DNA of 64,000 nucleotides from Candidatus Rokuibacteriota bacterium (GTDB lineage: Bacteria; Methylomirabilota; Methylomirabilia; Rokubacteriales; CSP1-6): positions 480-64,479 of the forward strand of contig VGLJ01000022.1 of the NCBI GenBank assembly GCA_016866775.1, in the 5' to 3' direction. The notes under the pieces are model-generated. The model was not told the DNA's origin, ran no database searches, and worked only from the letters and a program-made list of their open reading frames with translations. Each line of letters starts with the position of its first letter. Within the stretch, counting starts at the first letter, position 1. Shown here piece after piece: positions 13,240 to 56,367 of the stretch. A program made the translations under genes and the position numbers.

Positions 13240-14025
13240 GTGTCCGTCAAACCTGTGACCCCGTTGCCGGCCGCGACGCTCGTTCTCCTTCGCGATACGA
13301 AGCCCGGCGTCGAAGTGCTCCTGATGCAGCGTCACCGCGCGAGCAAGTTCGCCGGCGGCGACTACGTGTTCCCCGGCGGGAAGGTCGAGCTGGACGACAA
13401 CCCCGACGACGCCGCCGCGTGGTGCGCGGGGCTCGATCCCGCACGCGTGGCGGCACGCATCGGCCTCGCCGGCGATCCGAAGACCGCGCTCGGCAACTGG
13501 ATCGGCGCGATCCGCGAGACATTCGAGGAAGTGGGCGTGCTGCTCGCGTACGACGCGTCCGGGGCGTGGGCGCGGCTGGACCCCGCCCGCCTCGCGGAGT
13601 ACCAGCAGGCGTGCAACGCGGACAACAAGGCGTTCTGGACGATGGTGAAGGGCCAGCACCTGAAGCTCGCCACCGATCGCCTCGCGTACTTCGCGCACTG
13701 GATCACCCCGGAGGAGTCGCCCTACCGCTACGACACGCGCTTCTTCGCCGCGCCGATGCCCGAGGGCCAGACGCCGGTCGCTGACCCGCGCGAGGTCATC
13801 GACATGCGCTGGCTCTCACCGCGCGGGGCGATCGACGCGTTCAAGCGCGGCGAGATCTCGCTGCGCAATCCCACGGTCCAGAACCTGACGCTCGTCGACG
13901 CCGGCTCGGCGAAGGAGGCGCTCGACACGCTCAAGGACCGCGAGGTCCCCACCATCCGCCCCCGCGTGATCATGCAGGACGGCAAGCGCCGGATTCTCAT
14001 GCCCGGCGACCCCGGATACTTCTGA
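13240..14025 (+). CDS. NUDIX hydrolase
   Basis: Nudix box GNWIGAIRETFEEVGV (GX5EX7REuXEEXGu) and GGDYVFPGGK. GTG start within the track ORF 12805..14025. Confidence 0.75.
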   Translation: MSVKPVTPLPAATLVLLRDTKPGVEVLLMQRHRASKFAGGDYVFPGGKVELDDNPDDAAAWCAGLDPARVAARIGLAGDPKTALGNWIGAIRETFEEVGVLLAYDASGAWARLDPARLAEYQQACNADNKAFWTMVKGQHLKLATDRLAYFAHWITPEESPYRYDTRFFAAPMPEGQTPVADPREVIDMRWLSPRGAIDAFKRGEISLRNPTVQNLTLVDAGSAKEALDTLKDREVPTIRPRVIMQDGKRRILMPGDPGYF

Positions 14026-14029
14026 ACGC

Positions 14030-17000
14030 CTAAGATTCCGCGCGCGCCGGGGTGGGCGCGCGGCGGAAGAGTCGAGTGACGTGAGCGAGCCACGCGCGCG
14101 GCGAGAGCGCGCCGTGGAGATCGTCGAACAGGGAGTAGCGACAGGAACTGGCCGCCGAAGATGACCGCGCCGATCGCGCGGTTGTCGCCCGAGCCCACAC
14201 CGCTCGCCACCAGCATCGGCACCATGCCCGCGACGAACGCGAGGGTCGTCATGAGGATCGGCCGCAGCCGGTCCCGGTTGGCCTGCATGATCGCGTCCAG
14301 GTGTGGGACACCCTGCGCGCGCAGCGCGTTCGTGTGGTCGATCTGCAGGATGGCGTTCTCCTTCACCACGCCGAACAGCACGAGCAGGCCGAGCGCCGTG
14401 TAGATGTTGAGCGACTGGCCGAACATGATGATGGCCAGCAGCGCGAACGGCACGGTGAGCGGCAGCGCGAGCAGGATCGCCACCGGGTGCAGCCACGACT
14501 CGAACTGCGCCGCCAGGATCAGGTACATGAAGACGATCGACAGGAGGAAGGCCAGCAGGAAGTTCGTCGCCGCCTGGCCCATCTCCTTCGATGTCCCCAG
14601 CGTGCCGTGGGAGTACGCCGGGTCGAGGTTGAGCGCCCGCACTTCCTTCTGGATCGCCTCCAGCGCGGTGCCCTGCGCGTGGCCCGGGAGCATGTTGGCC
14701 GTCACCGTCACCTGGCGCCGCCGGCCGAAGCGGTCGACCTGCGACGGCCCCGCCGTCTCGGAGAAGTGCGCGACGTTGTCGAGACTCACCGCGCCCAGAC
14801 GCGCCGACGGCACCGCGATCTGCCGGAGCCCGTCGGCGTCCGTGCGCCAGGAGGGCAGGGCGCGCGCGTGCACCTCGTACTGCTCGCCGCCCTCGTTGCA
14901 GTTCGAGATCTTCTTGCCGCCCACCATCATCTCGAGCGTCGTGGCGACGTCCGCCACCTGGATGCCCAGTTCCGCGGCCTTGGCGCGGTCGAGGTGCACG
15001 GACATCTCCGGCTTGCCGAGCACGAGGCTCGTGTCGATGTCGACGACGCCTTCGGTGCGGGCGAGCGCCGCCGTCAGCCGCTGCGAGTACTCCGCCAGCT
15101 TCTTGAGGTCGGGCCCGCTGACGTAGTAGGCGACCTCCTTGTTCTGGAGGCCGCCGCCGCTGATCGCGCCCACCGGTGACACGCTCACGCGCAGCTGCTC
15201 GCCCGTGAACTTCGGCAGCACGTCCTGCCGGATCGCGTTCATGATCTCGAACTGGCTCGCCTTCCGGTCGTCCACCGGGATCAGCTTCACGAAGATGTTC
15301 GCCAGGTTCGCCGTGCGCCGCTCGTCGTCGCCCACCAGCACGACCGTGGAGCTCACGCCGGCGATCTTCTTGATCTCCCGGCCACGCGCGAGGCGATCAG
15401 CTCCGTCTGCTCCACCGTGGTGCCCTCGGGCGCGCGCATCGACACCGCAAACTGCGACTCGTCGTTCTTCGGCAGGAAGTCCTTGCCCGCCAGCTTGAAG
15501 AGCGGCACGGTCGACACGAGCGAGATCACGCACGCGAGCACGATCACCCACCGGTGCCGCATCGACCAGCCGAGGTGCCGGTCGTAGCCGCGCTCGAGCG
15601 GCCCGAACCACGGCGAGTCCTTGGACGTGTGCTTCGCGTGGCGGTCGATCGAGAGCCAGCGGCTCGCCATCATCGGCGTCAGCGTGAAGGCGACCAGCAG
15701 CGACACGAGGATCGAGAACGCCATCGTGAGGCCGAACGAGTACATGAACTGGCCGACGATGCCGCCCATGAACGCCACGGGCAGGAACACGACGACCAGT
15801 GACAGCGTGGTGGCCAGGACGGCGAGCCCGATCTCGCGCGTGCCCTCGATGGTCGCCTCGAAGGGCCCGAGCCCTTCCTCCTCCATCTTCCGGTAGATGT
15901 TCTCGAGCACGACGATGGCGTCGTCGATGACGATGCCGACCGCGAGCGTGAGCGCCACCAGCGTGAGGATGTTGAGCGTGAAGCCCATCGCCCACATGAG
16001 CGCGAACGTGCTGATGATCGACGCCGGGATCGCGATCGCGGCGATCACCGTCGAGCGCCAGTTCCGGAGGAACGCCAGCACGACGAGCGCGGCGAGGCCG
16101 GCGCCGACGAGCAGGTGCTCCTGCACGCGCGCGACCGCCGCCTTGATGTGCTCGGAGTAGTCGCGGATGACCTCGAGCGTGTAGCCGGCGGGCAGCCGTG
16201 GATGCATCTCCGTGAGCCGCGCGCGGAGCGCGTTCACGACCGCGACCGTGTTGGTGCCGGACTGCCGGCGGATCGCGAGCACGACCGCTGACTTGCCGTC
16301 GACGTTCGCCGCCGTCTCCACCTCTTCGGTGCCGTCCTCGACCACGGCCACCTCGCGCAGGCGAATGTGGACGCCGCCCTTGGCCGCGACCACGATGTCC
16401 TCGAAGTCCCTCACCGCCGGCACGCGGCCTTTCATCCGCACGGTGAGCTCGCGCGGGCCCTGGGCGATGCTGCCGCCCGGGAGCTGGAGGTTCTGCTTCT
16501 CGACGGCCCGCGCCACTTCCGCGGCGGTGAGGTTGTAGGCGCGCAGGGGCGAGGGATCGAGCTGGATGTTGATCTGGCGCGGCCGCCCGCCCACGATCCG
16601 CACGTCGCCCACGCCGGACAGGCCTTCGAGCTCGCGCCGCACGGTCTTGTCGGCGAACTCGCTGATCTCGCGGATCGGCCGGTTCGCGGACACCGCCACG
16701 TAGAGCACGGGCGCCGAGTCGGGATCGACCTTGTCGATGACCGGCTGGTCGATGTCTCTCGGCAGGTCGGGCAGGATCTGGTTGACCTTCGCCTGCACCT
16801 CCTGCTGCGCGACGTCGATGTCCTTCTCCAGCTTGAACTGGATGAACACCTGCGACACGCCCTCCGTCGACACGGAGCGCAGCCCGTCGATGCCCGAGAT
16901 CGTGTTCACCGCGCGCTCGATCTTGTCGGTGATGTCGATCTCGATCTCCTCCGGCGCCGCGCCGGTCTGCCGCGTGGTGACCGACACGCTCGGGAAGTCC

Positions 17001-17122
17001 GCTTTCGGGGACAGGTCGACGCCGAGGCGGAAGTACGAGAACGCCCCGACGACCACGAGCGACAGCACGATCACGCTGCCGAACACCGGGCGCCGGACCG
17101 ACAGCTCCGCGAGCCATTGCAT
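14030..17122 (-). pseudogene. HAE1-family RND efflux transporter (AcrB-like), disrupted by at least two frame breaks
   Basis: The N-terminal two thirds lie in ORF 15353..17122. The rest continues in a different frame (REIKKIAGVSST...). A -1 shift at ~15390 sits in a gcccggg run. A second break near ~14140 falls between FGGQFLSLL and the conserved YSLFDDL end. Confidence 0.7.
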
Positions 17123-17125
17123 GGC

Positions 17126-18342
17126 TCAGCTCCCCTGAGTCGTGACGAACACGCCGTCGCCGAGCTGCGGGACCGGCTTCGCGACGACCTTCTCACCGGC
17201 CACGATGCCGCGCTCGATCTCGACGAACCCCCCGGGCAGCTCACGGCCCAGCTGGACCAGGCGCAGCTCGGCGCGCTCGTTCTTGACGACGAACGCCGTC
17301 GACACGCCCGCTTCGGTCCGCACCGCGGCCGCGGGCACCAGCACGCTGGGCCGCACCGACGGCAGCTCGATGCGCGCGGTCGCGAAGAGGCCGGGCGCGA
17401 GGCGCCCGTCGCGGTTCGGGACCAAAGCTTCGACGACCAGCGCGCGGCTGTCCGTGCGGAGCGACGGCCCCACGTACGCGATGCTGCCCTCGAAGGGCCG
17501 GTCCGGATACGCCTGCACGCGGAACGCGACCTTCTGGCCGCGACGGATGGCGGCGACGCCGGTCTCCGGCACCGCGAGCTCCACGCGCAGCGGGTCGACG
17601 CGCACGAGGGTCGCGATGCGCGCGCCGCGCTGCACGTACTGGCCGGGCTGCACGTGCTTCTCCGCGATCAGCCCGTCCCACGGCGCGCGGACCTCGGCGT
17701 CGTGCGCGGCCTTGCGCGCCATGCTCACGCGGGCGCGCTGGGCCTGCAGCGTCTGGTAGAGCTGGCGCGCCGTGTTGATCTCCGCGTCGTACTGGGCGCG
17801 CGCGGTGAGCGCATCGGCGCGCCGCAGCTCGTACTCCGAGCGCGAGACCATCCCGCCGGCCACGAGCTTGGCGTACCGCTCGTGGTCCGCTTCCGCGCGC
17901 TCCATCGCGGCGCGGGCCCGGCGCGCGTCGGGCGTCTGCGCGGGTCGAACGGAGTCCCGTTCGTGAGCCCGAGCTTGGCCATCGTCTGGCCTTCGGTCGC
18001 CTCGGCTTCGAGGAGCTGGTTCTTCGCGTCCTCGCCGTCGAGCCTGGCGAGTACCGTGCCCGCACGCACGACGCTGCCGCGCTCGACGAGCACCGCCAGC
18101 ACGCGCCCGGCGTTCTCGGCGGCGACCTCGGTCTGCGCGTCGGCCATCAGCGTGCCGGTCACGTCGACGCCGCCGGGCAGCGCGCGCTGCTCGGCGCTCA
18201 CCAGCGTCACCACGATCGGCGCGGCGGGCGCCTCACTCGCGCGCGGCTTGGTCGCTTCCGAGCGGTCGCAGGCGATCTCCGTGACCGCCAGACTGCCGAG
18301 CGTCACCGCGAACAGGATGGATCGCACTCTCGCCGCGTTCAT
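17126..18342 (-). pseudogene. RND efflux membrane-fusion (periplasmic adaptor) protein, disrupted by a -1 frame break
   Basis: The N-terminus (MNAARVRSILFAVTLGSLAV...) is in ORF 17725..18819. The C-terminus (MERAEADHERYAKLVAGG..., HlyD-like) is in ORF 17126..17905. The junction at ~17945 sits in gaccc|gcg. Confidence 0.7.
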
Positions 18343-18868: not shown

Positions 18869-19324
18869 ATGCCGGATGACACGCGAGAACCTGTAACGCT
18901 CGAGACGCTGCACCGGGATATGCAGGTCGGCTTCGCCGACCTGAAGAGCACGTTGATCTCAGGGTTCCGCGGCTTGCCGGGCCGGGAGACGGCTGAAGAA
19001 ATGGTGCGGCTGCTTCGCGAGGGCAACCGCATCCAGGAGACCCGCCTCATCGAGCTCGACGTCCTTGCGCAGCAACGTCACATGGAGCTGGACACGCTCA
19101 TCCGGCGGCAGCACCTCGAGACACACCAGATCCTCGGCGAAACCCACGAGATCCTCCGCGCAATGGCCGAGGAACACCGCGGAACCCGACAGACCCTCGA
19201 GGACGCGCGCGTCGAGACCCAGCAGGCCCTCCGTGCGCTCAGCGAGGAGATTCGACGTCTGGCCGCCCAGATCAGGGCACTGATCCGGGGGCGCCGCAAC
19301 GGGGGCGACGCTACTCGAGGTTGA
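18869..19324 (+). CDS. hypothetical coiled-coil protein
   Basis: Heptad-like, Q/E/R/L-rich sequence ([49 protein letters not shown]). The start is uncertain (18848 or 18869). Confidence 0.4.
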
Positions 19325-21241
19325 AGCGCTTCAGGCGGGTGTAGAGCTGCGAACGGCTGAGGCCGAGGATCGCGGCGGCGCGCGAACGGGTCCCCTTCGC
19401 TGTCCTGAGCGCGTCGGTGACCATCTGCCGCTCCCAGTCTGCGAGCGACTGATGCCCGTCACCTGATTCGGTCCGCGCGGGTGTGGTCTCCGCCACGGCG
19501 GGGGACGAGGCGCCGCCACGCCCCCCGCGGGGGGCCGCGATCGCGAGCTGCGCCGCCGTGATCAACCCACCGTCCGACACGATCAAGGCGCGCTCGATCG
19601 CGTTCGACAGCTCGCGGATGTTGCCCGGCCACGAGTGAGAGAGCAGGACGTCGCGCGCGTCGCGGCTCAAGCCCGGCTCGCCCTTGCCCATGCGGCTGCC
19701 GATCTCGCGCACGACGTGGTCGGCGAGCAGGAGGACGTCGTCACCGCGCTCGCGCAGCGGCGGCAGATGCACGGCGAACACGTTCAGGCGATAGAAGAGG
19801 TCCTCGCGGAACCGGCCCGTGTCGACTTCACGTTCGAGATCCCGATTGGTGGCGGCGATGACCCGGACGTCGGCGCGAATCGTCGCCGTGCCGCCGACGC
19901 GCTGGAACTCGCGCTCCTGCAGGACGCGCAGGAACTTCGCCTGGACCGCGGCCGACAGCTCGCCCATCTCGTCGAGGAACAGCGTGCCGCCCTGCGCCTG
20001 CTCGAAGCGGCCCGGCCGCTGGCGATCGGCGCCGGTGAACGCGCCCTCCTCGTGCCCGAAGAGCTCGGACTCGAGCAGCGTGTCGGGCAGCGCGGCGCAG
20101 TTCACGGCGACGAACGGTCCGTTCGACCGCGTGCTGCCGTGATGGATCGCGTGCGCGACCAGCTCCTTGCCCGTGCCGCTCTCGCCCGTGAGCAGCACGG
20201 TGGTGTCCGTCGTCGCCACCTTCGCCGCGCGCTGCAGCTCCTGACGCAGCGCCGGCGCGCGGCCGACGATGCGGTCGAAGCCGTAGCGCTCGCCGAGCTC
20301 CGTGCGCAGCGACTCCAGGCGCTCTTCCAGGCGGCGCGCGCGCCCGCGCTCCTCACCGAGCCGCTGGTGCTGGATCGCGAGCACGACTTGCGCGGCGATC
20401 GCGCCGGCGTCCGACGCATCGAACCAGTTCGGACGCTGCTTGCCGAAGTAGAGGCCGCCGCCGACGCGCTCCCCGAACCTCAGCGGCAGCGCCATCACCG
20501 AGCGCCCGCCGCCCTCGATGATGAGGTGGTCGCCGGGGAGCGAGGGATCGGGCTCGGTCGTCGCGTCGTGGGTGATCACGGCCTCGCCGCGCAGCACGCG
20601 CGCCGCCATCGAGAAGCTGTCGAGCGGCATCCGCGGGGCGTCGGCACGTGCGCCTGATCCTCGGGATTGACCTCGGCGATGACGTCGATGTCGCGGCCGC
20701 TCGGCGTCACGATGCCCACGCCCATCACGTCGAAGTCCATCGCCGGCCGCACGGTCTCGGCCACGCGCTCGAAGACTTCCTTCACGTTGAGCGTGGAGCC
20801 CGGCACCACGGGCAGCCGCTCGAGCGCCGTCATGCGCTCGCGCCGGCGCCGCTCGCGCGGGCGCAGCACCGCGTTGTCGACGGCGGGCGCGATGTGGTCC
20901 GCGACGTGACGGCCGAGCGTCACGTGCCCCTCGGTGTAGGCGCCGGGGGTCAAGGAGGGCCCACTCCGAGACCGTGTAGCGCGCCTCGCGCTCGACGTCG
21001 GTCGTGTAGTGGTCCTCGTGCACACGGGGCCACGCACGACGTGCTCCGCGAACACGCGGAACGTGCGGCCGTTCTCGTCGAGCGCGTCGACGACGAGCCG
21101 ATCGTGCGGGAGCACGGGCTGGAGCACGTCGGACAGCGCGGCGAGCACGCGGTCCCGCGGCACGTCGTCGCGCAGCGAGACGGCGACGGAAGCAAGCGAC
21201 GCCCCGAGATCCCCGACGGGATGCGGATCGTGCGCGGCCAC
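19311..21241 (-). pseudogene. sigma-54-dependent (NtrC/Fis-type) transcriptional activator with N-terminal GAF domains, disrupted by three frame breaks
   Basis: AAA+ sigma-54 core ([22 protein letters not shown]) and a C-terminal Fis HTH in ORF 19311..21023. The GAF region switches frame at ~21020, ~20948 and ~20635. The GTG start overlaps the pfk TAG by 1 nt. Confidence 0.7.
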
Positions 21242-22488
21242 TAGCGACCGACGAGCGGCCCGAACCGGCTGCGGAGCTCCGTCTCGGTGAGGTTGCCCGC
21301 CTTCGCGAGCGCGGTGACCGTGTCCGGGTTGTCGAAGTCTTCGGGCTTGAGGCGGATCATGTACGCGTTGAGGGTCTGGTACGCCTCGGACTCCATGTCG
21401 ACGTAGCGCACGCGGATCTTGCCGGTCTTCGGGTCCAGCATCAGCCCGAACGGAATCGGGACGAGCCGGCCCGCCTGGATCGTCACCATCGCGTTGGTGC
21501 CGCCGTCGAGCAGGAAGCGCGTGGCCCAGTAGCCGAGGCTGCGGCAGTACTGGATGTCGGTCGCGCCGGGCGGCGCGCAGCGCAGCTCGTAGCCGAGGTC
21601 CTTCGCCACGATCGTCACGTCGAGGCCCCGCGCGCGCAGGTTGCGCGCCACGCAATCCTTCACGAGGCGCCCGAGGTCGAGCTCCGCGAGGCGGACGTTG
21701 CCGTAGGCGTCGCGCTCGACGTCACCGAGCGTGCCCGGGTCGAGCTTCTCGGCGATGCCCTCGGCGAGCAACGCCACGCCGTGCTCGCGGCCGTGCGAGC
21801 GGCGCTTGATGATCGCGCCTTCGAGGATGTCGGCCACGCGATCGAGGCTGACCTGGCCCTCGGGGAACTCTTCGGCGACGACGGTGAGCGTGGCCGCGGC
21901 GGCGCCGCCGACGCCGAGCGCCAGGTGCCCCGCGTGGCGCCCCATCACGGTGACGAAGAACCACCGCTCGGTCGTCGCGGCGTCGTTCATCAGGTTGCGC
22001 ACGAGCTCCTTGCCGAGGTTCACCGCCGTCGTGAAGCCGAACGTCATGACGTCGCCGGGCAGAGGGAGATCGTTGTCGATCGTCTTGGGCACGTGCGCGA
22101 CCGTGAGGCCGGGCATGGAGCGCGCGAGGCGCGACGCGCTGAAGCAGGTGTCGTCGCCGCCGATGGTGATCAGATGATCGACCCCGAGGCGCTAGAGCGT
22201 CTCCGCCACGTACCGGATGCCGTCCTGGGTCTTCGTCGGGTTCGTGCGCGAGGTCCGGAGGATCGAGCCGCCCTCGAAGTGGATCCGCGACAGCTCGCCG
22301 ATGTCGAGCTCGGTGACGTGCGACGTGTCGCCCTGGACGAGCCACTTGAAGCCGTCGTAGCAGCCGAGCACGCGTAACCCGTGGTTGCGCGCTTCGATCG
22401 TGGCCGCCGCGATGACCGCGTTGATCCCCGGCGCCGGTCCGCCGCCGACCAGGATTGCGAGCGTCTTGGGTGAGGACATCCCTTCCAT
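21241..22488 (-). pseudogene. pfk: 6-phosphofructokinase, probably PPi-dependent (GGDDT motif), interrupted by an in-frame TAG
   Basis: Two track ORFs, 22192..22488 and 21241..22116, are split only by a TAG at 22192-22194 where homologs have Glu. The 75 nt between them encode RLGVDHLITIGGDDTCFSASRLARS in frame. Other motifs are GGGPAPGINA, MGR and PKTIDND. Confidence 0.75.
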
Positions 22489-22672: not shown

Positions 22673-23473
22673 TTAGAACGCCGGCCCTCGGAGGCCGATC
22701 AAGAAGCCCGCAAGCATATCCCACCCCGACGTATGACCTAGCGACGTCAGGTCACGCGCGGCGCGGACCGTGTCTTCGCGATTCGCATCGACGAGGGCGA
22801 GCGCGAGGGCGTGCAGTGGTTCCCACCCTTCGCCGCCCGCGAGATCCTCCAGGAGCCGGGCGCTGATCGGATGGGTCAGCGTGGCGGCATCCGCGACGAT
22901 CCGCGCGGCGGCAGTCTTCCACGCGGCGGGATCCGTTGCGGTCACCAGACACCGCGCGAAGAGCGCACCACCGACGTAGTCGTCGCCCGACGGCGTGAGC
23001 CCGGGGCCGAGCCCGAGCAGTGAGTGCGCCGCGACCGCGAAGGCCGCGGCGTCGTCCGTGGCGGCTGCCTGCGCCAACGCGTGCGCGTGACCACGCGCGC
23101 GCGACGTGACGAGATCGTCGCCGGCGCGCGGCAGCGCGAGGCGAGCGAGGCCGCGCGGCTCGCCGAGGCTCCCGATCGCCTCCTTGAGCCTCCGCGCGAC
23201 GTCGCGGCCGTCACGGAGCGCCGCGAGGGCAGGAGGGCGCCACGGCGTGGCGCTCGCGACGATGACATCGATCGACGGCTCGGCGCCCGCGACCGGCGGC
23301 GCCGAGAGCGCCACGCCGCGCGGGTGCAGCGGCGTGCCCGGCGGGCCGACCCAGATCAGCTCGCCGGCGGCCATCGCATAGACCGAGGTGGAGAGCCGCG
23401 CGATCACGTCCGCGCGCCCGCCGCTCGCCGTGAGCGCCGCGTGCGCCCGCCAGCCGATCGCCTTCACCGTCAT
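22673..23473 (-). CDS. DUF2877 (YlbF/AllH-like) protein
   Basis: 266 aa with GLGPGLTPSGDDY, as remembered for the E. coli YlbF family. It lies next to FdrA-type, DUF1116 and carbamate kinase genes. Confidence 0.5.
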   Translation of the reverse strand: MTVKAIGWRAHAALTASGGRADVIARLSTSVYAMAAGELIWVGPPGTPLHPRGVALSAPPVAGAEPSIDVIVASATPWRPPALAALRDGRDVARRLKEAIGSLGEPRGLARLALPRAGDDLVTSRARGHAHALAQAAATDDAAAFAVAAHSLLGLGPGLTPSGDDYVGGALFARCLVTATDPAAWKTAAARIVADAATLTHPISARLLEDLAGGEGWEPLHALALALVDANREDTVRAARDLTSLGHTSGWDMLAGFLIGLRGPAF

Positions 23474-23636
23474 TCGTCGAGGCGAGCGAGCTGCGCGGCG
23501 ATGTCGGGCGCGCCGGCCGGCGGGCGCCAGTCCACGTGGACGACCGTGACGCCCTCGCGCTCGAGCTCCTCCGCGAACAGCTCGAGACCGACGTTGACCA
23601 CGTTCAACGGCCGGCCGAGCAAGCTCGTCAACGCCA

Positions 23637-24707
23637 TCACGTGTCTCCGAGGATCTTCGGCGCCAGCGTCGGATCGAGCGCGAGCGCCGCGAACCGTGCC
23701 GCCTGCGTGTTCGACGGGAGCACCTCCACTCCCGCGTGCTTCAGCGCGTCGATCTGCGCCGCGCGGTCCTGCGGGTCGGCATCCGTCCCGACGACCGACG
23801 CCACCACGCGCAGCGCGCGGCCGTCACGCTCGGCCTCGCGGCGCGCGTCGCCGATCGCCGCGGCGAGTGAGCGCGCCGGATCGGGATGCGCCGCCCGTCC
23901 GAGCACGAGGTCGAGCAGCAGCACTCCGACCCCGGCCGTCCGGCCGGCCTCGCGGACGAGGCCGTCGCGCGCGGACGGATCGATCATCGGATGCGGACGC
24001 CCTCGCGTGAACTCGTCGGCGCCGAGGTCCATGACGCGATGGGCGCTCGTCGCCGCGGTGCCGACGTTCCCGCCGACCGGTCCGATGAGCGGCTCGAGCA
24101 CGAGGCGGGCCTCGTGCGCGAGCGTGCCTCCGGTGTAGAGCGCGAGCAGCCCTGCGCGCGCGTTCGTCACGGCGAGCCGGGCCCGTACGCTGGCGGCATC
24201 GCTGAACGTCGTCGCCCGCCACGCCTGCCTTCGCACCGCCGCAACGGCGGCACCGTCCATGCCGTTCTGGCCGTTCAACCCCGGCGCGCCGTCCTTCCCG
24301 TTCTGACCGGCGGGGCCGGGCGGACCCTGGAGGCCGGCGCCGCCGATCGTGAGGTCCCAGAAGTCCGTCCGGGAGTCGCCGTTGCCCGTCGACACCATCA
24401 GGCGGTAGTCGCCCGGCTGGATGTCGATCGGCAGGCTGGCGGCGACCTGCGTGGGGTGGGCGCTCACGACACCAAGCGGGGACCCCGCGAGCACGACCTG
24501 GGTCGTCCGCTGCCTGCGCGTGAGGTTCACGCCGTTGATGACGATCTGGTGCGCGCCGGCGTCGACGTGAATGCTGCCGATGACGAGATGCTTCTTGTGG
24601 TCGTCGTCGTCATCGGCGTGCGCCACCGGCGCCGCGCCGCCGAGCGCGACCAGGAACGCCACGAGAGCCACGATCACGAGCCGTCCGATCTCCGTCATGT
24701 TCCGCAT
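23637..24707 (-). CDS. chimeric ORF: signal peptide, beta-rich domain, collagen-like (GXY)10 segment, and a C-terminal domain homologous to FdrA residues ~330-486
   Basis: GGAGGAGGAG precedes MRNMTE. Signal peptide LVIVALVAFLVALGGAAPVAHA|DDDDD. Collagen-like run GAGLQGPPGPAGQNGKDGAPGLNGQNGMDG. The tail (GRPHPMIDP...VLLLDLVLG...PSNTQAARFAAL) aligns to the end of the 28506..29966 FdrA protein. Confidence 0.5.
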   Translation of the reverse strand: MRNMTEIGRLVIVALVAFLVALGGAAPVAHADDDDDHKKHLVIGSIHVDAGAHQIVINGVNLTRRQRTTQVVLAGSPLGVVSAHPTQVAASLPIDIQPGDYRLMVSTGNGDSRTDFWDLTIGGAGLQGPPGPAGQNGKDGAPGLNGQNGMDGAAVAAVRRQAWRATTFSDAASVRARLAVTNARAGLLALYTGGTLAHEARLVLEPLIGPVGGNVGTAATSAHRVMDLGADEFTRGRPHPMIDPSARDGLVREAGRTAGVGVLLLDLVLGRAAHPDPARSLAAAIGDARREAERDGRALRVVASVVGTDADPQDRAAQIDALKHAGVEVLPSNTQAARFAALALDPTLAPKILGDT

Positions 24708-24852
24708 CGCCGTCTCCTCCTCTGCCTTGGCCGGTCCGCCCCGGGGGGCCGGCGTTCGTTCCTCGCGACGCGACACGAGTACCGAGGAGGGCGCAAGATT
24801 TCGTCAAAGCCATCGTCAAAAGCTCGTCAAAGGCGGGACGACCGGCTGCTGG

Positions 24853-25557
24853 CTAGGCTGGTCGAGGGCGTCGTGGGCCAGCCACGATAGACACCCCGTC
24901 GAGCGCGCGCAGGAGCCGCTCGCTCTTCGCGACCCAGCCGAAGATGCCGCCCTGGGCTTTCACCATGGCGAGGGCGGCGGCGTGGAGCTCGGGGAAGTAC
25001 GAGGCGACGCAGTCCTCGAGGACCAGGCACTCGAAGCCGCGATCGTTCGCCTCGCGCACGGTCGTCTGCACGCAGACCTCCGTCGTCACGCCCGTCACCA
25101 CGAGGCTCTGCACGGCGAGGCCGCGCAGCCGCGCCTCGAGCTCCGTCGCGTAGAACGCGCCTTTCCCCGGCTTGTCGATGACGAGCTCCTCCGAGGTCGG
25201 GCGGAGCTGGTCGATGATGCGGTGGCCGGGCTCGCCGCGCACGAGGATCCGTCCCATCGGGCCGCGGTCGCCGATGCCCTTCGCCAGCCGCCCGCGCCGC
25301 CGCTTCGACGGCGGGCAGTCGCTGAGATCGGCGGTATGGCCTTCGCGCGTGTGGATGACCTTGAGGCCGCGCGCGCGGAACGCGTCGAGGACCTTGCGCG
25401 TGGGCGCCACGGCGTGCCGGAGGAGCGCGACATTGTTCCCGAGCATCTCGCCGAACCCGCCGCGCTCGAGGAAGTCGCGCTGCATGTCGATCACGAGCAG
25501 TGCGGTCCCGGGGGGATCGCAGACGAACTCGTACGGCTCGGCCTGCACCGTGATCAC
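24853..25557 (-). CDS. isochorismatase-family cysteine hydrolase (RutB / biuret hydrolase / N-carbamoylsarcosine amidase-like)
   Basis: [10 protein letters not shown], the conserved Lys region, and [14 protein letters not shown] with the nucleophilic Cys. GTG start in ATGTGA overlap with the carbamate kinase stop. Confidence 0.7.
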
Positions 25558-26534
25558 ATCTGGAAGGAGAGCTGCATCGCGTCGTTGGGGACGACGAGCG
25601 TGCCGGCGCGGCCGCGCACGCCCTCGAGCGCGTCCTCGAGCGCGCAGATCGTCGCCTGGCCGCCGCCGTCGTGGACGAAGCGATACGCCGCGCGGACCTT
25701 GGGCCCCATGCTGCCGGCGGAGAACGGCTCGCGGACGAGCAGGCCTTCGAGCTCGGAGAGCGTCACCCGGCGGAGAAACTGCTGCGTGGGCTTGCCGAAG
25801 TCGACGGCGACGCCGGGCACGTCGGTGAGGATCAGCAGCGCGGCCGCGCGAACCTCGAGCGCCAGACGCGCCGCCGCCGAGTCCTTGTCGACGACGGCCT
25901 CCACGCCCTCGAACCGCCCGTCCGGGCGGCGCAGCACCGGCACGCCGCCGCCTCCGCACGCGATCACGACCGCGCCGACGTCGAGCAGCGCGTGGACGAC
26001 GTCGACTTCCACGATGCCGAGCGGCTGCGGCGACGGGACGAGCTTGCGCCAGCCGCGCGCGTCGACTTCCGTCCACACCTCGCGCTTGTCGCGCATCCGC
26101 TGCTCGGCCACGGCGCGCGGCAGGAACGGGCCGATCGGCTTCACGGGCGTCGCGAACGCCGGATCGTCCGCGTCGACGAGCACCTGCGTGACGATGCTCG
26201 CGACCGGCCGCGCGAGGCCGCGCGCCCGCAGGGCGTTCTTCAGCGCCTGCTGGATCATGTAGCCGATCTGGCCCTGGGTCTCGGCGCCGCACACGTCGAG
26301 CGGCACCGCGGGCACGAGATGCGACGCGGCCTCGTTCTGGATGAGCAGGGTGCCGACCTGGGGGCCGTTGCCGTGCGTGAGCACGGGCTGGTAGCCCTCG
26401 GCGATGAGCTGCACGATCTGCTCGCACGTGCGGCGGATGTTGTCGTACTGCTCCGTGTAGCTGTTGAGCTGCTTGGATCTCAGGATCGCGTTGCCTCCGA
26501 GCGCGACCACGATGCGATGCTCGTCGAGTCGCAT
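25554..26534 (-). CDS. arcC: carbamate kinase
   Basis: [10 protein letters not shown] and the carbamate kinase signature THGNGPQVG; 326 aa. TGATG overlap with the upstream gene. Confidence 0.85.
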
Positions 26535-27928
26535 CAGCCGGCGAGCGCTTCGAGCGCGGCGGTGAAGCAGCCGAGCGGCGCACGCACCACGCCGGCGCCG
26601 ACCTGGCCCACGCCGGCGACCTTGCTCGCGATGCCGGTGTTGATGATCGGCGCGATGCCGGTCTCCACCACGCGCAGCACGTCGATCCCCGCGGGCGCGC
26701 CACGCTCGTCCAGGCTGGCGATGCGGAAGTGCGGGTGCTCGGCGTGGCAGATCTCGCGCATCGCGTCGGTCGTGGCGAGCGCCTCGGCAACGCCGCCGGC
26801 GCCGAGGAAGCGCGCGACGGCGGGGGAGGCGGCCATCGCGCCGCCGCCGAGCCCGATCGTCTCGACGATCGCGCTGTCCCCCATGTCGGGATTCGCGTCG
26901 TCCGGGCCGTAGCCGGGGAAGTAGAGGCCGACCGGCATCTCGACGGGTGCGACGAACCACCGCTCCCCGAAGTGCGACACGCGGATGCCGAAGTCCGTGC
27001 CGTTGCGCGCCATCGTGGTCACGAGCGTGGAGCCCGGCACGCCGCCCGCCGGATCGACCATCGATTTCCCCGCCGCCATCGCAAGGTTCAGGAAGAACTG
27101 GTCGTGGCCGGCGAGGAACTCGGCGAGGCGCGCGGCGGCGTGATGCCGGTCGGCGACGCGCGCCACGTGCGGCATCAGGGCGCGGACGAACAGCGACGAG
27201 GCCCCGACGTTGCGCTGGTGCATCTCGTCGCCCATCCGGAGCGCCTGCGCCATCAACGGGCGCAGCTCGATGCCCTGGCTCGCGCGCAGCGCGGCGCCGA
27301 ACAGCGGTCCGGCTTCCTGCGCGAGCCAGGTGAGACGCGCGATGACCGACGCGTCGTTCGCGCCGTAGCGCAGCACCTTGCCGAGCCCTTCGTTGATCGT
27401 CACGTGCGCGCGGTTGCCGTGCGCGCGGTTCTCGACGACGAAGACCGGCATCGACGCGGTGAGCACGCCCGCCATCGGCCCGACGGCGCGCCGGTGGTGG
27501 CAGGGCTCGAGCCGCACGTCGCCGCGGACGATCAGTTCGGCGGCCGCATCGTCGTTGGCGGCCCAGCCCTCGTAGCGGATCGCGCAGAGGATCGCCGCGC
27601 GCACCGGCGGCGCCACGCGCTCCCACGCGATCGGCGGCCCCGAGTGGAGGACGAGCCGGTCCGGCAGCTCCATCGCCTCGCGCGCCGGCCGGCAGTCGAG
27701 CAGCACCGGCTCGCCGTTGACGAGGATGTCGAACGCGCGCTGGTTGGCGGCGTCGATCTCCGCGCGTCGCGTCTCCAGGCGCGCGAGGAGCGCGGCGAGC
27801 GTCGCGTCACCGCCCGCGGGCGGGCGCCAGTCCACGCCGACCACAGGGACGCGAAGCTGCGCCAGCGCGTCGGCGAAGAGATCGAGGCCGACGTTCACGA
27901 CGCGCGGCGGGTTCGGCAGCGCGCTCAT
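26534..27928 (-). CDS. DUF1116 (YlbE/AllG-like) protein
   Basis: ~464 aa starting [18 protein letters not shown]. Placed between FdrA and carbamate kinase, as in the E. coli fdrA-ylbE-ylbF-ybcF arrangement. The family assignment rests on size and context. Confidence 0.5.
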
Positions 27929-28509
27929 TCGAGCTCCAGCGCGAGGTCGCTCACGCGAAACCCGCTGATCGGATTCAGGTCCATCGGGCACGCGCTGACC
28001 GCCGCGACGAGGTCGATCAGCGCGCGCAGCTCGACGACGTCGCCCGGCTTCGCGAGCGACTCCAGCCACTCGGCCCGGCCGTCGACGTAGCGCATGTGCT
28101 GGAAGAAGTTCACGGGTTGCGGCAGCTGGTGCCGCGCGCGCGCCCACGGCGCGAGGACTTCGAGGAAGTTGTCGGAGCAGTTGCGGTGGCCGGTGACGCC
28201 GAAGTCCAGCTCGTAGCGCCACGGGTCGCACGCGGAGATGAGCATGTCGTGCCGGCCCGTGTCGTCGCGCGTGATCTCGACCATCGGCCGCCGCCGGTTC
28301 GTGCGGAGCCGGTCGCCCGTGGTCGGGAACAGCCGCTGGAGCGAGACGAGCGTGTGCAGCGTGCTGAGCGACTCGTCGAGATCCGCCGCGTTGAACGCGA
28401 CGAAATCCGCCACCTGCTTGCCCTGCACGTTGACGATGCGCATTCGCTGCCCCGCGCGCAGCGTGACGGCACGCGCGGTCGTCGCGGGAATCTCGATGCG
28501 CTGGCTCAT
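27925..28509 (-). CDS. DUF1989 (urea-carboxylase-associated family) protein
   Basis: 194 aa starting MSQRIEIPATTARAVTLRAGQRMRIVNVQGKQVADFVAFNAAD...RDDTGRHDMLISACD. The pattern is recalled for TIGR03424/03425-type proteins. ATGA overlaps on both sides. Confidence 0.45.
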   Translation of the reverse strand: MSQRIEIPATTARAVTLRAGQRMRIVNVQGKQVADFVAFNAADLDESLSTLHTLVSLQRLFPTTGDRLRTNRRRPMVEITRDDTGRHDMLISACDPWRYELDFGVTGHRNCSDNFLEVLAPWARARHQLPQPVNFFQHMRYVDGRAEWLESLAKPGDVVELRALIDLVAAVSACPMDLNPISGFRVSDLALELE

Positions 28510-29966
28510 CCGCGGGCCTCCGAGGCGCGCGCGGCGATCAGCGCCGCGAGCCGTGCGGCCTGCGCGTTCGACGGCATGACGATGACGCCCGCCCGCGCGA
28601 GGGTCGTTGTCTGGCGTGCGAGCCCTTGGGGATCGCCGTCGGTGCCGCACACGCTCGCCACGACGGCGACGCCTTCACGGCGCGCCCGCTCGATGGCGGC
28701 AAGCAGCTCACCGGCGGGATCGGGATGTGCGCCGTAGCCGAGCACGACGTCGAGCAGGATCACGGCGGTCGTCGGATCGGCGGCGTCCTTGACGATCCAC
28801 TCCCGGCGGATCGTGCCGTCGATCATCGGATGCGGGCGCCCGACGGTGTACGCGTCGTCGCCGAGGTCCACCACGCGGTGACCGCCGGGCAAGAGCGCGG
28901 CCGCCTCTTGCGCGAGCGTCCCGCCGGCGTACACGCCGCGCACGAAGCGACGGCCACTGCTCAACGACGCCGCTGCATCCGTGACCAGGCGCGCGACGTC
29001 GTCGTTCGGGATGGTGAAGCCGACCGGCCGATGCCGCTCGCCACGCGCGAGCGCGACGGCGGCGTGCGCGGTGTCTTCCAGCGTGGAGACGCCGCCGGTG
29101 AAGTGCGCGATCCAGGGCTTGCCGAGCGCGGCGAGCCAGCCGTCGATCTTCTTCGCGGTCATCGGACCCGGCGGCTTGCCGATGACGCAGATCACCGACG
29201 TCGCGGGATCGGCGGCGAGCGCCGCGAGCGCCGGCTCGAGCATCAGACCGCCGACGTCGTCGGAGAGGTCGCGACCGCCGAGCCCGATCGCGTGCGAGAC
29301 GCCTTCACCCGCCGCGGCGAGGTGACACGTCACCGCCTGGAGCCCCGTGCCCGACGCCGCGGCGATCCCGATGCGGCCGCGCGGCACCGCGTTCGCGAAG
29401 CCGAGCGGCACGCCGCCGAGGATCGCGGTCCCGCAGTCGGGCCCGAGCGCGAAGAGCCCGCGCTCGCGCGCGAGCTGCTTGAGCCGGACTTCGTCGGCGA
29501 CCGGCACGTTGTCGCTGAAGACCATCACGTGCAGCCCGGCGGCGAGCGCCTTCGTCGCCTCCGCCGCGGCGTAGACGCCGGGTACGGAGATCAGCGCGAG
29601 GTTCGCGTCGGACAGCGCCGCCATCGCCAGGCGCAGCGAGCGGCGGCGCACGACGCCGCTGATGGACGGCCCGCCGCCGCCACCTCCGCGTGACGCGCGC
29701 GCGAGGGCGTCCTCTCCCGCCGCCCATGCGGCGCGCGCGGCGTCCTCGCGCTCGGCGACCACCGCGACGACGAGATCCGTCGGGCGCGCCGCCTCACCCT
29801 CCGCGGTGAGCAACCCGGCGTCACGCAGCAGCGCCAGGTTGTGCGGCGTGCCCATCATCGCGGCCGCGCGTGTGACGCCCGTCACCGCCTCCATGTCCCG
29901 GCTGAGGCGCATCAGCGTCACCGAGTCGTGATACGCGCCGCGCCGGACGAGGTTCCAGACGGGCAT
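28506..29966 (-). CDS. fdrA: FdrA/AllF-family protein (acyl-CoA synthetase NDP-forming / succinyl-CoA synthetase alpha-like)
   Basis: 486 aa. SCS-alpha-like GPDCGTAILGGVPLGF, a Gly-rich CoA-binding region, and a C-terminal GRPHPMIDG...PSNAQAARLAAL. Confidence 0.7.
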   Translation of the reverse strand: MPVWNLVRRGAYHDSVTLMRLSRDMEAVTGVTRAAAMMGTPHNLALLRDAGLLTAEGEAARPTDLVVAVVAEREDAARAAWAAGEDALARASRGGGGGGPSISGVVRRRSLRLAMAALSDANLALISVPGVYAAAEATKALAAGLHVMVFSDNVPVADEVRLKQLARERGLFALGPDCGTAILGGVPLGFANAVPRGRIGIAAASGTGLQAVTCHLAAAGEGVSHAIGLGGRDLSDDVGGLMLEPALAALAADPATSVICVIGKPPGPMTAKKIDGWLAALGKPWIAHFTGGVSTLEDTAHAAVALARGERHRPVGFTIPNDDVARLVTDAAASLSSGRRFVRGVYAGGTLAQEAAALLPGGHRVVDLGDDAYTVGRPHPMIDGTIRREWIVKDAADPTTAVILLDVVLGYGAHPDPAGELLAAIERARREGVAVVASVCGTDGDPQGLARQTTTLARAGVIVMPSNAQAARLAALIAARASEARG

Positions 29967-29970
29967 CGCG

Positions 29971-30747
29971 TCAGGTCGTGCGGCTGTACGGAAGATACGT
30001 GCGGCCGGTCCCGCTGCCGCCGTCCACCGCCATGACGTCGCCGGTGATGAAATCGGCCTCGGGCGAGGCGAGGAAGAGCGCCGCGCGCGCGATGTCCGCC
30101 GGCGTGCCGGCGCGGCCCCAGGGAATGGTGCCGACGAGCGTCTTCACGTACTCGTCGGACACCTGGGTCACGTCGCGATCGACGGTGACGAGCCCCGGCG
30201 CGATGCAGTTCACGTTGACGTGGTGCGGTCCGAGCTCCATCGCGAGCACCTTGGTGAACATCACCACGCCGGCCTTCGACGCGCAGTAATGCGCCGCGCC
30301 CTTGCGTCCGCTGCTCGCTGCGCCCGAGGCGATCGTGATGATCTTGCCGCCGCCGCGCGCCACCATCCCGCGCGCCGCCGCCTGGCAGGTGAGGAAGACG
30401 CCGCGCAGGTTCGTCTCCATCACGCGGTCCCACTCGTCGACGCTCATCTCCACGACGGGGCAGTTCGGATAGATCCCGGCGTTGGCGACCGCGATCGCCG
30501 GCGGACCGATGGCGCTCTCGGCCGCGCGAAAGAGCGTGCCCACGGACGCCGCGTCGCGCACGTCGACGGTCTGCGTGAAGATGCGCGACGACCGGCCGAG
30601 CCGCTCCGCGGCGGCGGCGAGGCCGCGCTCGTCGACGTCGCCGAGCGCGACACGCGCGCCCGCCTGGTGAAACGCCTCGGCGATGCCGAACCCGATGCCG
30701 GCGGCGGCGCCGGTGACGAGCACGGACTGGCCGGTGAAGTCGTGCAC
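29971..30747 (-). CDS. SDR-family short-chain dehydrogenase/reductase
   Basis: TGAAAGIG Rossmann motif, NAG, and the catalytic YxxxK (YCASK). Confidence 0.85.
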   Translation of the reverse strand: MHDFTGQSVLVTGAAAGIGFGIAEAFHQAGARVALGDVDERGLAAAAERLGRSSRIFTQTVDVRDAASVGTLFRAAESAIGPPAIAVANAGIYPNCPVVEMSVDEWDRVMETNLRGVFLTCQAAARGMVARGGGKIITIASGAASSGRKGAAHYCASKAGVVMFTKVLAMELGPHHVNVNCIAPGLVTVDRDVTQVSDEYVKTLVGTIPWGRAGTPADIARAALFLASPEADFITGDVMAVDGGSGTGRTYLPYSRTT

Positions 30748-46737: not shown

Positions 46738-47130
46738 TTATCGAAGCGGTGACAGCGAGAAGTGTGTGTGCGTGGCCAGCCAGCGCCCGTTCCGGCGCGC
46801 GAAGATCACCGTGCACCGTCCGGGCCGGTCGAAGTCCGTGCCGTCGGGCCTGAGGCCGCGCGAGTCCCAGGTGGCGGCGACCCAGCCGTGATCGCCGACG
46901 ATTCCGCCGCGCGCGTTCGCGGTGTCGATCGTGAAGCCCTTGATGGAGGGCCACACGTGCTCCCACTGCGCCCTCTTGATCTCCTCGATCCCGGTGACGA
47001 ACGGCGCCACCGTGCCGAACGCGACCATGTCCGGCGCGCAGAGCTTCTTGCCGGCCTCGAAGTCCTGGTTGCGGACGGCGGTGTGGAGGTCGGCGAGCCA
47101 GGCGCGCAGCGGCGCGATCGGGTCACTCAC
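46738..47130 (-). CDS. SnoaL/NTF2-like (DUF4440-type) protein
   Basis: ~130 aa. GTG start in GTGA overlap with the upstream stop. NTF2-like cone pattern (WDSRGLRPDG...ARRNGRWLATHTHFS). Confidence 0.5.
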   Translation of the reverse strand: MSDPIAPLRAWLADLHTAVRNQDFEAGKKLCAPDMVAFGTVAPFVTGIEEIKRAQWEHVWPSIKGFTIDTANARGGIVGDHGWVAATWDSRGLRPDGTDFDRPGRCTVIFARRNGRWLATHTHFSLSPLR

Positions 47131-56254: not shown

Positions 56255-56260
56255 TTGACC

Positions 56261-56308
56261 CGGAGGGGGCATCGCCTCGTCGGAGGGGGCCTCGACGGGC
56301 CCCCTCCG
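56261..56308. repeat. GC-rich repeat, family 3, copy 1: direct repeat plus a perfect 10-bp-stem hairpin
   Basis: CGGAGGGGGC-ATCGCCTCGT-CGGAGGGGGC CTCGACGG GCCCCCTCCG, 7 nt after the binding-protein TAA and before the permease gene. No T-tract follows. Confidence 0.7.
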
Positions 56309-56367
56309 AAACCTCCCCCAGGCAGGATTGCGCCGGCGGAGCCGGCGCTCGAACACACGGCACAGTC

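Follow-up and report, generated by a model that had tools for sequence, protein, structure and literature searches.

The DNA analysed here, a 64,000-nt stretch (hereafter the window) of contig VGLJ01000022.1 from a Candidatus Rokuibacteriota bacterium, carries at positions 22673-29966 a locus in which every real gene lies on the minus strand and which we interpret as the form taken in Rokubacteria (Methylomirabilota) by a ureide-catabolic module that is widespread and partly mobile and conserves carbamoyl groups as ATP; the probability of this interpretation we put at about 0.55. Such a module would consist of a feeder hydrolase, a carbamoyltransferase made up of AllH, AllF and AllG subunits, and a carbamate kinase. 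That a ureide is hydrolysed at this locus and its carbamoyl group conserved as ATP had been proposed in an original prediction made from the DNA sequence, and it is still the best reading, although the co-location of such genes has already been published (PMC12625717; PMC12928451). Where that prediction left the substrate unknown, a likely substrate class can now be given: the hydrolase carries the full residue signature of the triuret hydrolase TrtA, not that of the biuret hydrolase BiuH. In its layout, the locus is one intact five-gene operon followed by the stump of a second module.

The window has a G+C content of 71%, so that most long open reading frames (ORFs) are spurious and genes had to be assigned via third-position GC. 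An actinobacterial origin, considered in view of this G+C content, is rejected, as the window encodes sigma-54 activators and its homologues bear the names of Rokubacteria/Methylomirabilota. The operon opens with allF1, encoding an FdrA/AllF-type subunit (28506-29966, minus strand like all genes of the locus; 486 aa; NCBIfam FdrA model NF004760, 466.5 bits against a cut-off of 433; Pfam CoA_binding and Ligase_CoA), and continues with a DUF1989 gene (27925-28509; 194 aa; PF09347, 169 bits), allG1 for the AllG/DUF1116 subunit (26534-27928; 464 aa; PF06545, 298 bits), a carbamate kinase gene (25554-26534; 326 aa; TIGR00746 (arcC), 379.4 bits against a cut-off of 358.25, residues 7-315) and, with a GTG start, the gene for an isochorismatase-family hydrolase of the TrtA type (24853-25557; 234 aa; PF00857, 156 bits). 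The overlaps predicted to join these five genes are borne out by the sequence: ATGA at the AllF/DUF1989 and DUF1989/AllG junctions, TGATG between AllG and the kinase (an overlap of 1 nt), and ATGTGA between the kinase and the GTG-initiated hydrolase. Beyond a gap of 145 nt lie a chimeric ORF (23637-24707; 356 aa; a collagen-like N-terminal part plus Ligase_CoA, Pfam match 190-341), a 55-aa 'tail' ORF (23470-23637) that matches positions 506-545 of the FdrA model, and allH for the AllH/DUF2877 subunit (22673-23473; 266 aa; PF11392, 79.6 bits), with GTGATG and ATGA at the two junctions. All six gene families named originally (FdrA, DUF1989, DUF1116, carbamate kinase, isochorismatase-like, DUF2877) were upheld by Pfam and NCBIfam hidden Markov models, and the minus-strand gene order was as described, except that the 55-aa ORF between the chimeric ORF and AllH had been omitted. 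The identical gene order, including the chimeric ORF, is present in independent ENA and JGI assemblies (L001, L002), so the layout is not an assembly artefact; shorter JGI/Logan contigs (L003-L006) agree with it over their extent.

The most informative component is the hydrolase. Its best matches among solved structures are the TrtA entries 6XIX and 6XJ4 (271 and 267 bits), compared to 231-236 bits for BiuH structures and about 90 bits for RutB. The entries 6XIX, 6XJE and 6XJ4 represent the triuret hydrolase TrtA of Herbaspirillum (sp. BH-1), for which the catalytic triad, the cis-peptide, the binding residues and six positions that differ in consensus between TrtA and BiuH have been reported (PMC7948467). 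With 60% identity to TrtA over 211 residues, the window protein keeps the catalytic triad D24/K129/C162, the cis-peptide V157-T158 and the binding residues F29, E72, K132 and Q202, and has all six TrtA-specific residues (F35, N41, A134, E160, Y187, I205); the BiuH consensus at these six positions (Y, Y, S, D, T, V) is not seen, and the BiuH equivalog cut-off is missed (NF050097, 271 bits versus 370). The same 15 catalytic, binding and discriminating positions are kept in the window hydrolase and in its counterparts from three related loci (L092, L094, L095), and a relative from a further locus (L096) departs from TrtA with a Ser at position 134. By its residues, then, the hydrolase is of the TrtA type, that is, triuret-hydrolase-like, and not of the BiuH type.

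The canonical neighbourhood of TrtA (BiuH, TrtB, AtzF) is not shared by the window locus, which has neither BiuH nor AtzF. Of seven further TrtA-like contexts that were examined, six likewise lack BiuH and AtzF and have allFGH-type (All) genes that adjoin the hydrolase gene or lie within 10 kb of it. Two Rokubacteria loci (L092, L094) show the window arrangement plus a transporter and a second module (L094 in fragmentary calls); a Rokubacteria-like locus (L095) has AllH-AllGa-carbamate kinase-TrtA, a bmp transporter and AllGb-AllF-tail, followed on the opposite strand by a gene for an AH_C-like protein, a stand-alone protein that resembles the C-domain of allophanate hydrolase and among NCBIfam models is matched by those of allophanate hydrolase only. 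In these three relatives a BMP-type ABC transporter thus lies between the two All modules. A Chloroflexota locus (L099) encodes PucR and then AllH-AllF-AllG-carbamate kinase-TrtA-permease-AH_C, an Armatimonadota locus (L096) GntR-TrtA-NCS1 permease-ABC transporter-AllG, with AllG within 10 kb; elsewhere permease-TrtA-AH_C sits amid xanthine-dehydrogenase genes with an AllG 10 kb away (L100), and one context consists of TrtA-AH_C only (L101).

Outside these lineages, an operon flanked by insertion sequences (ISs) is found on 78 E. coli IncF plasmid records, many of them from poultry and pigs, in the order TrtA-like-DUF2877-FdrA-DUF1116-carbamate kinase-AH_C-like-NCS1 (cytosine-permease-like)-LysR (L105 9720-17898, NZ_CP128971.1). 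Its TrtA-like protein, WP_000155780, is 61% identical to the window hydrolase and has all 15 TrtA residues. A chromosomal copy in E. coli BEN2908 (GR29) has been listed as a RutB-like/pyrimidine region (PMC12928451), and in comammox Nitrospira and ammonia-oxidising archaea trtA/biuH, bmpA-nupABC and allFGHK are co-located and have been read as two pathways (PMC12625717). The nitrifier sets and the E. coli GR29/IncF operon comprise the same gene families as the window, and the published readings of them are separate pathways or pyrimidine degradation; the window version differs in the loss of the transporter, in the lack of biuH and atzF and in the presence of DUF1989, which is not mentioned in PMC12625717. 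Neither a second isochorismatase gene (BiuH) nor an amidase-signature gene (AtzF) was found in L092, L094, L095, L099 or the E. coli plasmid modules, and the window locus, too, has a single isochorismatase gene and no amidase-signature gene. The association of hydrolase, AllHFG and kinase is therefore real and wide, and partly published though unexplained.

A second feeder enzyme comes with a closely similar set of genes. A module in the order hypothetical protein-ring-opening amidohydrolase-NCS2 permease-DUF2877-FdrA-DUF1116-carbamate kinase-LysR is known from plasmids in Klebsiella, Citrobacter, Enterobacter and Aeromonas; it is IS-flanked and resides on conjugative plasmids of clinical enterobacteria (L104 1425-11502, Klebsiella NZ_KP125893.1; L107, Aeromonas NZ_CP118989.1). 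The amidohydrolase is the cyanuric acid hydrolase AtzD (NF052395, 580 bits against a cut-off of 360; PDB 6BUM, 582 bits), the AllG linked to it is 79% identical to that of the TrtA-linked E. coli operon, and no biuH or atzF is present inside the module, which may represent an undescribed route for cyanuric acid. Like the window, E. coli K-12 yahE-yahF-yahG-yahI-yahJ (L103 4926-11508) combines DUF2877, an FdrA paralogue, DUF1116, a carbamate kinase-like protein and a hydrolase, but YahJ is a metal-dependent amidohydrolase rather than a cysteine hydrolase, and YahG forms a separate branch in the AllG tree. The design of a feeder hydrolase with an AllHFG-like complex and a kinase seems to be general.

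What the complex is likely to do can be judged from E. coli, in which AllFGH has been proven to interconvert oxalurate and oxamate plus carbamoyl phosphate (PMC11326118). The window encodes the same three subunit families with a neighbouring carbamate kinase: AllF1, with its HMA_AllF_N, CoA-binding and CoA-ligase domains and the GRPHPMID motif kept, is 42% identical to E. coli AllF, AllG1 49% identical to AllG, AllH about 38% identical to its E. coli counterpart over the C-terminal domain, and the kinase 42% identical to AllK/YbcF. By analogy, chemistry of the E. coli allFGHK kind would be expected, with a ureide and phosphate giving an amide and carbamoyl phosphate, and the latter giving ATP. 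Several differences from E. coli are nevertheless evident. The gene order in the window is F-(DUF1989)-G-K-hydrolase, with H in the second module, and the closest relative has two AllF/AllG paralogue pairs with one shared AllH; allantoin/ureidoglycolate genes (allB/C/D/E) are not nearby, and no oxalurate-making enzyme (allantoinase, allantoate amidohydrolase, ureidoglycine aminohydrolase, ureidoglycolate dehydrogenase) was found among the annotated window genes or in L092, L095 and L099. Unlike the E. coli complex, that of the window is linked to a TrtA-type hydrolase, so its substrate may not be oxalurate.

The pathway could then run in three steps. The TrtA-type hydrolase would deamidate triuret, or a very close poly-ureide, to 1-carboxybiuret and NH3; AllF1-AllG1-AllH would use phosphate to split an N-acylurea, H2N-CO-NH-CO-X-COO-, so that its terminal carbamoyl group is released as carbamoyl phosphate; and carbamate kinase would convert carbamoyl phosphate and ADP to ATP, NH3 and CO2. 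For the second step the likeliest substrate is carboxybiuret (X = NH), which would give allophanate in parallel to the conversion of oxalurate (no X) to oxamate: carboxybiuret, H2N-CO-NH-CO-NH-COO-, is oxalurate, H2N-CO-NH-CO-COO-, with one NH inserted. DUF1989, probably a metal-dependent accessory enzyme, may handle an N-carboxylated intermediate in place of the AH_C-like protein of the other versions. The substrate of the hydrolase, that of the transferase and the role of DUF1989 are all deduced here from sequence and gene context.

These observations can be unified in a simple fashion. TrtA and AtzD both yield 1-carboxybiuret (PMC7948467), and each is paired, in modules without biuH/atzF, with a close AllHFG-carbamate kinase set, so that phosphorolysis of carboxybiuret by AllHFG appears to be the simplest unifying idea; no such proposal was found in a literature search. 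Under this hypothesis, which is tentative and to which we give clearly less than even odds, the TrtA- and AtzD-linked AllH-AllF-AllG complexes would be acyl-urea phosphorylases rather than oxalurate enzymes, cleaving 1-carboxybiuret, and perhaps allophanate or biuret, to carbamoyl phosphate; in the lineage of the window, DUF1989 would assume the step on an N-carboxy intermediate performed elsewhere by the AH_C-like protein, and two AllF/AllG pairs sharing one AllH would act on successive intermediates.

Several facts weigh against the pathway outlined here. In comammox Nitrospira, the same genes are accompanied by biuH and atzF, which already provide for full hydrolysis (PMC12625717). Carboxybiuret is lost by spontaneous decarboxylation, its half-life being about 20 min (PMC7948467), so biuret could be the true substrate. 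Sequence does not separate substrate classes among the AllG proteins, since AllG1 is no closer to its counterpart in the oxalurate enzyme of E. coli (49% identity) than to the AllGs encoded on plasmids (48-49%), and the neighbour-joining tree of AllG is star-like, with no sorting by feeder enzyme and with the window protein next to E. coli AllG. Orthologues of the DUF1989 protein occur in many unrelated contexts, and the window genome has lost the linked transporter and has several broken genes in the neighbourhood, so the pathway may be decaying.

Some of the same facts favour a different explanation, namely that two independent pathways are co-located and co-regulated: a hydrolytic triuret route, in which carboxybiuret passes to biuret and on to BiuH/AtzF encoded elsewhere, and degradation of oxalurate by AllFGH and the kinase as in E. 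coli, the two substrates both being products of purine oxidation. This is the published reading for the nitrifiers, in which the comammox genes trtA, biuH, atzF, bmpA-nupABC and allFGHK amount to a full hydrolytic route plus an oxalurate route (PMC12625717). It would agree with the adjoining positions of AllG1 and E. coli AllG in the tree, with a DUF1989 orthologue in a uricolysis cluster (L011) and with the PucR-type regulator and the xanthine-dehydrogenase genes of the Chloroflexota and permease-TrtA-AH_C loci (L099, L100). The lack of biuH/atzF in L092, L095, L099, the E. coli plasmid module and the AtzD plasmid module is, by contrast, difficult to accommodate, as is the compactness of the modules, two of which are IS-flanked and come with their own permease and regulator. 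In addition, no oxalurate-making gene (allB/C/D/E-like) is present among the annotated window genes, and the pairing of two different carboxybiuret-forming enzymes, each with a close AllHFG-carbamate kinase set, would be hard to explain if the substrate of the transferase were unrelated. We therefore regard two separate pathways as a serious contender that is, on balance, improbable.

The evolutionary history of the locus bears on a further alternative and is best understood by comparison with the closest relative found, the Rokubacteria locus L092, the DUF1989 of which is 93% identical to that of the window. The first part of L092 is the same five-gene module, allF1-DUF1989-allG1-carbamate kinase-hydrolase; it is followed, on the other strand, by a BMP-family ABC transporter and then by allG2-allF2 (508 aa)-58-aa ORF-allH-three small genes-phosphofructokinase-sigma-54 activator. 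According to blastn, window positions 29046-24856 correspond to L092 1-4182 at 90% identity and 24251-22691 to L092 10913-12498 at 81%. What lies between them in the window, 604 nt at 24252-24855, has no counterpart in L092 (blastn and direct reading of the sequence; strand is not applicable to this segment) and stands for 6.7 kb of that genome, comprising the ABC transporter, allG2 and the 5' part of allF2. The more distant relatives L094 and L095 also possess the transporter and the allG2-allF2-tail unit, so the state seen in the window is derived. Thus, the six genes originally grouped as one set do not form a single unit: AllH, the 55-aa ORF and the chimeric ORF represent what a deletion or replacement spared of a second allG2-allF2-tail-allH module, and the same event removed the BMP-type ABC importer.

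Besides an intergenic stretch, the 604-nt segment holds the 5' end of the chimeric ORF, 152 codons for a signal peptide, an Ig-like region and collagen-like Gly-X-Y repeats. What follows, starting at about residue 163, is the C-terminal CoA-ligase half of allF2, 88.5% identical to that of the intact AllF2 of L092. In a search of a library of representatives, the first 152 residues match the N-termini of 157 of these representatives, each standing for a protein family, at E<1e-10, the best being 60% identical, and these are proteins of 200-600 aa that belong to a large family of the secreted collagen-like type; a metagenome scan for the donor of this part returned one unrelated collagen-like match only. 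The chimeric protein is also encoded in an NCBI Candidatus Rokubacteria metagenome-assembled genome. Considering that the allF2 remnant shows a dN/dS of 0.16 relative to L092, the fusion is either recent or tolerated. About 95-125 nt upstream of the chimeric start, three TTGACGA direct repeats are found on the minus strand (24801-24830) at a spacing of 11-12 nt, followed by a strong GGAGGAG ribosome-binding site; this region may represent promoter/operator DNA of the gene, coding for a secreted protein of the collagen-like type, that donated the N-terminal part.

Could the whole locus, then, be a decaying remnant without a working pathway, with the surviving ORFs on their way to becoming pseudogenes? 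Apart from the 6.7 kb missing relative to L092 (the importer, allG2 and half of allF2), several genes downstream, all on the minus strand, are broken: the PPi-phosphofructokinase is split into 98 and 291 aa (22192-22488 and 21241-22116) compared to 415 aa in L092, the sigma-54 activator into 221 and 439 aa compared to 702 (20576-21241 and 19311-20630; the GAF region is short of about 160 nt), and the AcrB-type pump into 589 and 542 aa compared to 1041 (15353-17122 and 13728-15356), and the membrane-fusion protein is shortened to 259 aa compared to 397 (17126-17905). The lesions recur in independent assemblies, and the one in the phosphofructokinase, at least, looks for this reason like real gene decay. 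Against this, allF1, DUF1989, allG1, the kinase gene, trtA and allH are all full length and have a strong coding signature, the operon genes evolve under purifying selection relative to L092 (dN/dS 0.09-0.23), and one complete set of AllF, AllG, AllH, kinase and TrtA is left. The population is losing genes around the locus while the core operon is intact and constrained, and we consider a dead pathway unlikely.

Very improbable is the last alternative, that the hydrolase acts after the transferase, as an amidase that disposes of the amide formed (converting oxamate, for instance, to oxalate and NH3) and so frees all the nitrogen of oxalurate. In favour of this, its gene is the last of the operon, after the kinase; E. 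coli excretes or leaves oxamate, and other bacteria need a separate oxamate amidase. A gene of this kind, hpxW, is named in PMC12625717, and the TrtA study makes no mention of oxamate or oxalurate, which were thus apparently not among the amides assayed (PMC7948467). Against it, the residues of the long planar triuret pocket are all kept, including the six that tell TrtA from BiuH, the activity of TrtA was below 0.5% on every smaller amide assayed (PMC7948467), the hydrolase gene is the first in the E. coli plasmid module, and the AtzD-linked plasmid module comes without such a hydrolase.

In the carbamoyltransferase, one small module is not always carried by the same subunit. AllF1 of the window lacks the C-terminal tail of about 50 aa that E. 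coli AllF possesses; residues 3-51 of AllG1 (window 27776-27922) match positions 506-554 of the FdrA model, which correspond to this tail, and the 55-aa ORF has two homologous counterparts, the stretch of approximately 50 residues that ends E. coli AllF and the N-terminal part of AllG1. The free-standing form is kept as a 58-60-aa gene after allF2 in L092 (11527-11703) and L095 (18211-18393), and on the enterobacterial plasmids the module is fused to AllG. This module of about 50 aa thus occurs in three forms: it ends AllF in E. coli, begins AllG in other cases, or makes up a free-standing gene of 55-60 aa; of these, the window has the second and the third but not the first. This Rosetta-stone pattern suggests that AllF and AllG touch via the module, which might form the interface between them. 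As for AllH, the only allH gene at the locus was originally part of the second module; it is intact and encodes a protein 75% identical to AllH of L092 (dN/dS 0.23), and being the sole copy left, it probably serves AllF1 and AllG1.

The DUF1989 protein deserves separate consideration, having originally been viewed as a partner in the pathway by analogy with the companions of urea carboxylase. Its residues D35, C94, H108, C111, C174 and D177 align with D198, C263, H276, C279, C343 and D346 of the trimethylamine N-oxide demethylase Tdm, and the metal-ligand residues (three Zn cysteines plus His/Asp) are invariant among 15 orthologues, which suggests that the protein is probably an active metalloenzyme. 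It shares its fold family with the catalytic domain of Tdm (PDB 9Q59) and with CgdAB but, unlike Tdm, has no GcvT domain, and its score is below the Tdm cut-off. The carboxyguanidine deiminase CgdAB ('urea-carboxylase-associated proteins') makes allophanate, which would tie the family to N-carboxy-urea chemistry. The analogy with urea carboxylase itself does not apply, given that the protein falls below the cut-offs of the urea-carboxylase-associated families UAAP1 and UAAP2 (TIGR03424, 109 bits versus 285; TIGR03425, 83 versus 206); moreover, the window has a single DUF1989 gene rather than a two-subunit pair, no urea or guanidine carboxylase is found among its annotated genes, and an Rfam scan of the whole window returned no family and hence no guanidine or other riboswitch.

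DUF1989 overlaps both of its neighbours by ATGA. The allF-DUF1989 pair with a 4-nt overlap is present in three genomes only, those of the window, of L092 and of L102 (the latter with an 84% identical DUF1989), whereas in L094, in which the crotonyl-CoA carboxylase/reductase (CCR)-SDR-allF1 synteny upstream is the same (SDR, short-chain dehydrogenase/reductase), allF1 leads straight to allG1. DUF1989 is therefore a lineage-specific insert and not a core part of the module. In a GTDB survey seeded with DUF1989, AllG was nearby in 3 of 80 loci (L012, L013 and L033, which is the same as L009; two distinct genomes), neither the hydrolase nor AllH in any of them, and the full six-gene set in none; in 55 more distant GTDB loci, no All genes were nearby. 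DUF1989 as a general partner of AllFGH is thus rejected, and of the neighbourhood conservation that had been anticipated, what stands is the five-gene module in L092 and the combination of hydrolase, AllH/F/G and kinase in Rokubacteria, Chloroflexota and E. coli plasmids. The idea that DUF1989 replaces AllH meets with the fact that AllH of the window is kept under purifying selection; AllH was not detected near L009, L012, L013 and L102, contigs that are short or rearranged.

Elsewhere, orthologues of the DUF1989 protein, 69-82% identical, are found in other contexts: near AllG-carbamate kinase-SDR-RidA-racemase (L009, L013), in the order AllG-AllG-SDR-DUF1989 (L012), followed by the imine deaminase RidA in six loci (L007, L014, L022, L025, L026, L029), and after an acyl-CoA dehydrogenase (ACAD)-like flavoenzyme in five (L015, L019, L020, L024, L051). 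The RidA and ACAD-like contexts hint that the DUF1989 reaction makes or uses an imine. The ACAD-like loci also have a membrane adenylate-cyclase-like protein and an NMT1-type ABC transporter upstream. In one JGI contig (3300055072; L011 1-13817), a 74% identical orthologue follows a PuuE-like polysaccharide deacetylase and a class-V aminotransferase within a uricolysis cluster that also encodes 5-hydroxyisourate (HIU) hydrolase, 2-oxo-4-hydroxy-4-carboxy-5-ureidoimidazoline (OHCU) decarboxylase, a urate oxidase N-domain protein, xanthine dehydrogenase and a 777-aa amidase, which suggests that the subfamily acts in purine/ureide breakdown. Within Rokubacteria, DUF1989 is loosely but repeatedly linked to All and ureide genes. 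The versions of the module with DUF1989 (window, L092) are without the AH_C-like gene, and those with AH_C (L095, L099, the E. coli plasmid) are without DUF1989, a faint hint that the two proteins functionally replace each other; L094 has neither.

Upstream of the operon, seven co-directional genes (37474 to 29971, minus strand) encode Amidohydro_2, an acyl-CoA synthetase, NMO (FabK-like), an F420-dependent LLM oxidoreductase (TIGR03617), a 277-aa hypothetical protein, CCR and an SDR oxidoreductase (29971-30747, identified by Pfam and NCBIfam) that ends 4 nt upstream of allF1, the gaps next to allF1 being 4-7 nt. This run was not counted in the module, because L094 has it in the same order while L095 and L099 do not. 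The SDR, which in L102 is parted from allF by a gene on the opposite strand, is at most a possible member of the pathway. No biuH, atzF, urease or oxalurate-making gene was found in the annotated parts of the window. A search for the sigma-54 promoter consensus gave nothing near the locus and fewer matches overall than expected by chance, and a sigma-70 and terminator scan gave nothing above background. At a distance of 20-30 kb, a formamidase/acetamidase-family gene (47127-48080, minus strand) and a Peripla_BP_6-type ABC transporter with a fused double permease (55016-58191, plus strand) are present, which may add a capacity for scavenging small-amide or urea-type nitrogen.

AllFGH was identified as an oxamate carbamoyltransferase only in 2024, and paralogues such as E. 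coli YahEFG, as well as environmental copies, are without an assigned substrate. The present comparison indicates that one AllFGH branch has been repeatedly wired to enzymes that make 1-carboxybiuret, namely TrtA acting on triuret and AtzD acting on cyanuric acid, in modules that include a dedicated permease, regulator and kinase yet lack hydrolases for biuret and allophanate, which points to a phosphorolytic, ATP-conserving use of poly-ureides. While the co-location of hydrolase, AllFGH and kinase was known already, what is new is the prediction, drawn from sequence comparison, that this branch could phosphorolyse acylureas of the carboxybiuret type. Poly-ureides arise as impurities of urea fertiliser, as breakdown products of s-triazines and as products of urate oxidation, and the carriers of the module include Rokubacteria, Chloroflexota, nitrifiers and plasmid-bearing enterobacteria. 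Irrespective of its chemistry, the window locus provides a clear case of in-frame gene fusion produced by deletion. The idea is directly testable, because the same operon is found on conjugative plasmids of cultured E. coli; if it is true, triuret and cyanuric acid would be degraded via an ATP-yielding route that bypasses both biuret hydrolase and allophanate hydrolase.

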